Assembly (NCBI GenBank): GCA_016839945.1
Contig: JAEOTE010000063.1
Span: 1 to 48,440, forward strand
Length of the DNA stretch: 48,440 nucleotides
Origin: Candidatus Heimdallarchaeota archaeon
GTDB lineage: Archaea; Asgardarchaeota; Heimdallarchaeia; Heimdallarchaeales; Heimdallarchaeaceae
Reading direction: 5' to 3'
Below the pieces are notes generated by a model. The model made no database searches and had not been told where the DNA came from. It saw only the letters and a list, made by a program, of their open reading frames with translations. Both the position numbers and the translations under genes were made by a program. This document shows positions 33,319-33,388 of this stretch, piece after piece (the stretch's first letter is position 1; the number at the start of each line of letters is the position of its first letter).

Positions 33319-33388
33319 TGAGAGTTTCAGACCCTATTTTTTTCGCATGAGTCTACTTAAAGTAGTGCATGGTCATCACTAACTCTCA
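33319..33388 (-). ncRNA. box C/D 2'-O-methylation guide sRNA
   Basis: Minus strand reads UGAGAGUU-A-GUGAUGA-CCAUGCACUACU-UUAA-GUAGACUCAUGCGA-AAAAAAUAGGGU-CUGA-AACUCUCA: perfect box C, perfect box D, 8-bp terminal stem, and a 12-nt guide complementary to the conserved SSU rRNA GUGCAUGG region. Confidence 0.85.

Follow-up and report, generated by a model that had tools for sequence, protein, structure and literature searches.

Does the interval between an osmC-like gene and its neighbor in a Heimdall-group archaeon hold a guide RNA and, if so, which ribosomal nucleotide would that RNA select? An earlier note, made from the letters alone, had proposed a hidden box C/D guide aimed at the small-subunit rRNA site equivalent to Gm1271 of yeast and Gm1328 of humans. 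We followed up this proposal in the window, by which we mean the whole analyzed stretch of 48,440 nucleotides (Candidatus Heimdallarchaeota archaeon, contig JAEOTE010000063.1), and in related genomes. The comparisons indicate that positions 33319-33388 of the minus strand, in this Asgard archaeon, constitute a genuine but unannotated gene for a box C/D guide RNA of 70 nt. The best explanation, to which we assign a probability of about 0.8, is a stand-alone archaeal box C/D sRNA that would guide methylation of the G equivalent to E. coli 1051. Both the RNA class and its mechanism are already textbook, and this is an ordinary kind of RNA; its site is of use in dating the origin of rRNA modification sites in eukaryotes.

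The sRNA locus and its conservation

The locus is non-coding, lying intergenically 22 nt beyond the stop codon of the convergent osmC gene, and measures 53 nt from box to box and 70 nt including the stem, with ~50-70 nt expected. Its terminal boxes C (RUGAUGA class) and D (CUGA) are perfect and able to form a K-turn with a 3-nt bulge. The features of the locus and its surroundings are as follows.

33524..34402 (+): divergent neighbor encoding 292 aa, without a Pfam family
33419..33423 (-): BRE-like element CGAAA; columns -35 to -31 are shared by 14-19 of the 19 genomes from genera g1 and g2, unlike the flanks
33410..33418 (-): TATA-box-like element ending ATATTA, 21 nt before the stem
33381..33388 (-): 5' arm of the terminal stem; 7/8 pairs with two-sided changes in 23 homologues
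33373..33380 (-): unpaired A (33380) and box C, GUGAUGA (33379-33373); K-turn bulge A-G-U
33361..33372 (-): predicted D' guide, 12 nt; 11 Watson-Crick pairs with the host 16S on contig C157
33357..33360 (-): box D', UUAA, degenerate; the same column is CUGA in G028, G044, G046, G035 and G037, and UUGA or AUGA in others
33342..33356 (-): 8-nt loop and box C', AUGCGAA (33348-33342); second G-A pair absent from the internal kink
33331..33341 (-): weak D guide, 11 nt; +5 base A33335, candidate target a U near E. coli 1122 in 16S
33327..33330 (-): box D, CUGA, perfect in sequence
33319..33326 (-): 3' arm of the terminal stem; 8 Watson-Crick pairs with the 5' arm, covarying
33305..33318 (-): U-rich tract, likely an archaeal terminator; T-rich in most homologues, the sequence itself not conserved
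32853..33296 (+): osmC-like gene, convergent neighbor; PF02566, E 1.9e-14

The perfect boxes C and D, the 8-bp closing stem with its A-G-U bulge (all eight pairs Watson-Crick) and the U-rich tract 3' of the stem all lie on the minus strand where the earlier note had put them. Its two 12-nt spacers fared unequally: the first is 12 nt (33372-33361), while the second has 11 nt if box C' is the 7-nt AUGCGAA. The 292-aa divergent protein carries C2H2-like zinc-finger motifs and an acidic tail; its gene stands head-to-head with the sRNA, an arrangement kept in genera g1-g3.

By itself, the pattern of boxes and stem is not significant. A box C, a CUGA and a stem of K-turn geometry occurred together twice in the 3-Mb genome and twice in the reversed genome, and the predicted fold of the locus has a z of -1.5. 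The locus rises above chance because box C runs directly into an 11-mer complementary to the host 16S, for which ~5e-5 occurrences are expected per genome, and because it is conserved and covaries in relatives. Genome-wide C/D scans of the host genome yielded no signal beyond control level, or employed patterns that were too strict. The Rfam search that had been suggested returned only chance-level matches in the window, with no family at gathering score, and models RF00133 and RF01201 did not match the sRNA locus at E<=10 or better. The host genome contains a further C/D sRNA with four canonical boxes (contig C24, 12031, plus strand), whose D' guide addresses the C1402 region of 16S.

A covariance model built from 23 sequences finds the sRNA in 26 of the 31 genomes of the family at E<1e-8; its independent matches are G013, G024, G025 and three genomes of family f3. 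The five family genomes without the sRNA are also without the neighboring osmC match. Homologues occur in four further families of the class, among them f5, where 19 of 22 genomes have a 1051-register guide; f7 has a tentative copy in one genome, and no copy was found in f6. Across 317 other genomes of the phylum, the search pattern revealed no consistent sRNA family, only scattered, heterogeneous matches that were partly inspected. The loose phylum-wide pattern proved to be noise: an apparent enrichment in f11 came from sequence around the start codon of a small ORF, and those matches in f14, f17, f19 and f23 that were inspected were rejected as lying inside ORFs. The sRNA adjoins osmC in most relatives, with the same arrangement in most g1-g3 genomes; in g4, g5, f2 and f3 it is present away from osmC and the divergent gene. 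For instance, in family f2 (G031 contig C101, 4724-7635) it sits ~2.6 kb downstream of an L7Ae gene rather than beside osmC. The closest relative, L086, belongs to the same genus and is deposited as 'Candidatus Thorarchaeota archaeon' despite its Heimdallarchaeaceae-like genes.

Among the 23 distinct homologues, the terminal stem covaries, a point that the earlier note had suggested checking: two-sided changes at seven of the eight pairs were equaled by 0 of 500 shuffles, and slid controls scored far lower, the score being inflated by the relatedness of the homologues. The boxes are conserved as well, with both sheared G-A pairs between boxes C and D kept in 23/23; the terminal closing pair is G-C in 21/23 and U-A in 2/23 (genus g4). 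Upstream, ATATTA precedes the 5' arm by 20-22 nt in 19/19 genomes of g1 and g2, and by exactly 21 nt in 17. The BRE/TATA-like element would be the sRNA's own promoter: its conservation points to an independent transcript, and its fixed distance suggests that transcription would begin close to the first stem bases.

The first guide and its predicted target in helix 34

The host genome (3.0 Mb, 32% GC, 88% complete) matched none of the rRNA models with which it was searched, and the 3' fragment of its 16S was located by motif. That fragment, at the start of contig C157, begins in helix 34 and makes up the 3' third of the molecule; the assembly is without its own 23S and the 5' two thirds of 16S, such that other targets were tested on relatives only. 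The helix 34 target reads GGUAGUGCAUGG, including a lineage-specific A. Against it the D' guide forms 11 Watson-Crick pairs plus a terminal U-G, more than the 9-10 nt of complementarity that the earlier note had looked for. The match of the first spacer to helix 34 that had been claimed was correct, and the G-U pairs allowed for in making it proved unnecessary, since the host 16S needs no internal wobble. For every homologue tested with its own rRNA, no other site in 16S or 23S matches as well as the one in helix 34, and no target with >=7 pairs emerged among the 22 tRNAs found.

Which nucleotide is selected depends on box D'. The earlier note had read UUAA as a degenerate D' box only provisionally, and this reading has been borne out: in homologues that very column is occupied by CUGA, UUGA or AUGA, with CUGA in G028 and in families f3 and f4 and the other two forms elsewhere. 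Canonical D' boxes in relatives fix the +5 register. With UUAA as box D', the +5 base is C33365. Its partner is the G that precedes the C1054 equivalent by three nt, just as had been worked out for C1054/C1274. By position equivalence, this G is E. coli 1051, yeast Gm1271 and human Gm1328, and the spacing in the host 16S from the target to the next landmark is that of E. coli. The offset used here draws on the established sequence of the eukaryotic helix 34 motif. Um1269, Gm1271 and ac4C1280, the modifications reported in yeast (PMC5464676), fit this conserved motif only with the offset 1051 = 1271. [quoted passage not shown] The identity with yeast G1271 (snR40) and human G1328 (U32) that the earlier note had proposed agrees with both sources.

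Covariation between guide and target provides what we regard as the strongest evidence for a pairing function at the 1051 site, and in the 1051 register. Positions -2 to -11 of the D' guide are identical in 22-23 of the 23 homologues and position -1 is free. Across the class, 16S positions 1048-1051 vary, giving five variants, and each guide of f1/f2, f3 (two genera), f4 and f5 is free of mismatches against the 16S of its own lineage and no other. G046 is an example: a U stands at the target position there, and the guide has A at +5. The D' guide most probably directs 2'-O-methylation of the 1051-equivalent G, the nucleotide that is methylated in yeast and humans.

The host encodes the machinery for such a reaction: L7Ae, Nop5 and fibrillarin are all present, the fibrillarin gene adjoining the single Nop5, the only Nop-family gene found in the 88% complete genome. 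The nearest named relatives of the fibrillarin are from Heimdallarchaeota or Heimdallarchaeaceae, at 68-76% identity, and on this basis we take the host to belong to Heimdallarchaeaceae. Loop 9 of the host L7Ae is L-K-V, of archaeal type, as opposed to the V-S-R of Snu13 (PMC8413462 for the distinction). In the mechanism we propose, the sRNA's own BRE/TATA promoter would give a transcript of ~70 nt, L7Ae would bind its terminal K-turn and, going by the RNA class, a Nop5 dimer and fibrillarin would assemble upon it. The D' guide would then pair with the 5' strand of helix 34 in the 16S of the pre-rRNA, and fibrillarin would 2'-O-methylate the G opposite the fifth base before box D', which the +5 rule puts at 1051 (yeast G1271, human G1328). 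In the host genus this would proceed with a C'/D' motif that has lost one G-A pair and with a second guide that has largely decayed. In the host genome, that second guide may continue to bind a U near 1122 and might even methylate it.

A decaying internal motif and the rival readings

Away from its terminal boxes, the RNA is less well preserved. The first G-A pair of the C'/D' motif is kept in 21 of the 23 homologues; the second is found in only six, outside g1 and g2, and is absent from all 17 distinct sequences of those two genera. In homologues of g3, g4, g5, f2, f3, f4 and f5 the motif is canonical and intact. Since all outgroups carry a canonical internal motif, the decay appears to be local to two genera and recent; it resembles the eukaryotic condition (PMC8413462) and, on this comparison, cannot be its ancestor. 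The earlier note had found the long stem and degenerate C'/D' boxes more like eukaryotic snoRNAs than archaeal sRNAs, and this is better taken as resemblance than as inheritance, given that degeneracy is confined to two genera, that outgroups are canonical and that the host L7Ae has an archaeal-type loop 9. Within one lineage, then, a C'/D' motif can be seen decaying beside a guide that selection still maintains; such a series offers a natural experiment on the extent to which an archaeal sRNP depends on its internal kink. Weighing against the proposed mechanism is the description of archaeal C'/D' motifs as essential; in its favor, archaeal L7Ae can kink a motif without the second G-A pair (PMC8413462). 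The furthest decay was observed in G004/G007 (L009, L010), where even the first G-A pair is lost: there box D' is UCGC and would form Watson-Crick pairs with box C' throughout, which predicts the absence of an internal kink, yet the guide is unchanged.

The D guide, whose target had been left unidentified, now has a weak candidate. In the host genome it makes 8 Watson-Crick pairs in 16S, 71 nt downstream of the first target, with its +5 base at a U ~1122. Within +-100 nt, 1 of 300 shuffles was as good; over all rRNA, an 8-bp match arises by chance in ~14%. G005/G022 keep 7 pairs near 1122, with a matching change in guide and rRNA, and no such pairing was present in 11 other genomes examined. 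We read the D guide as a fading second guide, variable and mostly without a target. A pair of working guides aimed at neighboring sites is the usual, though not universal, condition in archaeal box C/D sRNAs. A CUACU/AGUAG hairpin that had been thought able to mask the first guide occurs only in the three closest genomes, the host (G000), G003 and G016, and does not form in the predicted fold, which speaks against such masking.

The loss of internal structure leaves room for other readings of what the RNA does. It might still bind helix 34 and in the host genus no longer methylate, acting as a folding chaperone in small-subunit assembly. The guide is invariant even where box D' is wrecked, as by the UCGC of G004/G007, and such roles and non-methylating pairings have been proposed for archaeal sRNAs (PMC4644070, PMC6009581). 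Against this stands the behavior of the +5 pair: no lineage departs from Watson-Crick pairing there, and the guide base follows changes in its target; moreover, the -1 base is free and the spacing to box D' fixed, as a methylation guide predicts. We consider the chaperone role unlikely. Slightly less likely still is that the guide of the host genus methylates a neighboring base (1052 or 1050), or two bases. The alternative C'/D' register UUUA, one base upstream of UUAA, matches CUGA equally poorly, and unusual C'/D' motifs in yeast can shift the site by a base or cause multi-site methylation (PMC5389607). Yet close relatives differ (U, A or G) at the first base of UUUA but preserve the UUAA/UUGA column, together with the pairs it forms with box C', and no 1050-register guide was found in the class.

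The sequence might, alternatively, be conserved as DNA rather than as an RNA gene, for instance to regulate the divergent gene or to terminate transcription between convergent genes. Its position between two genes of conserved arrangement would suit this, as would the chance-level frequency of box C/D plus stem genome-wide. But guide and 16S covary across five families, the K-turn pairs covary, the promoter is oriented towards the sRNA, and in g4, g5, f2 and f3 the sRNA is found away from these genes. The location data and the guide-16S covariation effectively refute this reading. A stand-alone sRNA that would guide methylation at 1051 accounts best for these observations.

Counterparts in archaea and eukaryotes

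We found in the literature no paper on Asgard C/D guides, nor an experimental archaeal modification map for the helix 34 position. Guides to this region are on record for other archaea. Four of the seven archaea treated by Dennis et al. 2015 (PMC4644070) have sRNAs aimed at alignment position G1026: Sulfolobus acidocaldarius sR6, Methanopyrus kandleri sR120, Ignicoccus hospitalis sR310 and Pyrobaculum calidifontis sR49. From their alignment and printed guides, G1026 is E. coli 1050 and yeast 1270, one base before 1051. With these four the Heimdall sRNA shares the compact C-D'-C'-D layout, 50-55 nt between boxes, a guide with AUGCAC, the same helix 34 strand and the L7Ae/Nop5/fibrillarin machinery; S. 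acidocaldarius sR6 even has its other guide ~70 nt downstream, near 1124, reminiscent of the Heimdall D guide near 1122. Unlike them, it selects 1051 in place of 1050, its C'/D' motif is without one G-A pair, and it adds an 8-bp terminal stem.

In its predicted target, the sRNA resembles the eukaryotic snR40 (RF01201), U32/SNORD32 (RF00133) and AtsnoR21 of clan CL00054, which serve Gm1271, Gm1328 and Gm1272. As in yeast snR40, it is the D' guide that addresses the 1271 site, and the C'/D' motif is weak. The likeness to the U32/snR40 family is limited to sequence that the target forces. The second guides of snR40 and U32A target LSU sites, unlike the Heimdall D guide, and the host has one Nop5 and an archaeal L7Ae, as opposed to the Snu13, Nop56 and Nop58 of the eukaryotic snoRNP. 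On these grounds we regard the Heimdall sRNA as a predicted functional counterpart of U32/snR40, whose membership in that family is not demonstrable.

The 1051 register is shared within the class by a double-guide sRNA of f5 (L333-L347). There, the 1051 guide is the D guide, as against a D' guide with a decayed partner here; the f5 sRNA also has a long internal hairpin, and its D' guide fits the other strand of helix 34. A separate guide for that other strand was not found in the incomplete host assembly, and no 1050-register guides were found in the class. In a metagenome sample, the 1050 register was seen in at least 12 archaeal sRNAs that look complete, and many of these carry a second guide directed at the other helix 34 strand; they make up 12 of the 14 complete sRNAs among the matches listed, and L190 and L235 use 1051. 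These two (L190:667-720, minus strand; L235 near 2493-2514) are complete four-box archaeal sRNAs on taxonomically unplaced contigs, and L190 has as its other guide a match to the opposite helix 34 strand. For one L235 protein, the best named matches come from Thermoplasmata, Methanoperedens and Hadarchaeales, at ~60%, and neither contig appears Heimdall-like. The 1051 register is probably typical of Heimdallarchaeia and not exclusive to them.

It is possible, if on balance doubtful, that the Heimdallarchaeia 1051 guide and U32/snR40 descend from one ancestral guide by a single shift from 1050 to 1051 before eukaryogenesis. Were that so, Gm1271/Gm1328 would be a modification inherited from the Asgard host. 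In favor are the presence of the 1051 register in six of the seven families of the class (one tentatively), with no 1050 guide found there, and the use of 1050 by the four described archaea and by those 12 of 14 metagenome sRNAs. On the other side, a one-base indel interconverts the 1050 and 1051 registers, the guide sequence is dictated by the target, and the unplaced contigs L190 and L235 are also at 1051. For Hoeppner and Poole (PMC3511168), archaeal sR12 was the one counterpart of a LECA snoRNA that could be named, descent and convergence being inseparable for lack of archaea close to eukaryotes. A predicted guide at the exact LECA site, widespread in Heimdallarchaeia and one base off the crenarchaeal and euryarchaeal site, constitutes a mappable character, and one that can be used to explore which of the rRNA modifications of eukaryotes go back to the Asgard host.

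The host 16S offers a further observation. Helix 45 contains a hairpin insertion of ~32 nt (contig C157, ~nt 483-514), just before the anti-Shine-Dalgarno end, flanked by a bulge-helix-bulge with a 4-bp helix (UGCG/CGCA) and two 3-nt bulges; deleting it in silico restores the sequence of intron-free relatives. Several Heimdallarchaeia have helix 45 inserts, at two sites: L049 and L050 share the host's, and L048, L051 and L052 carry theirs at a second site, a few nt upstream.
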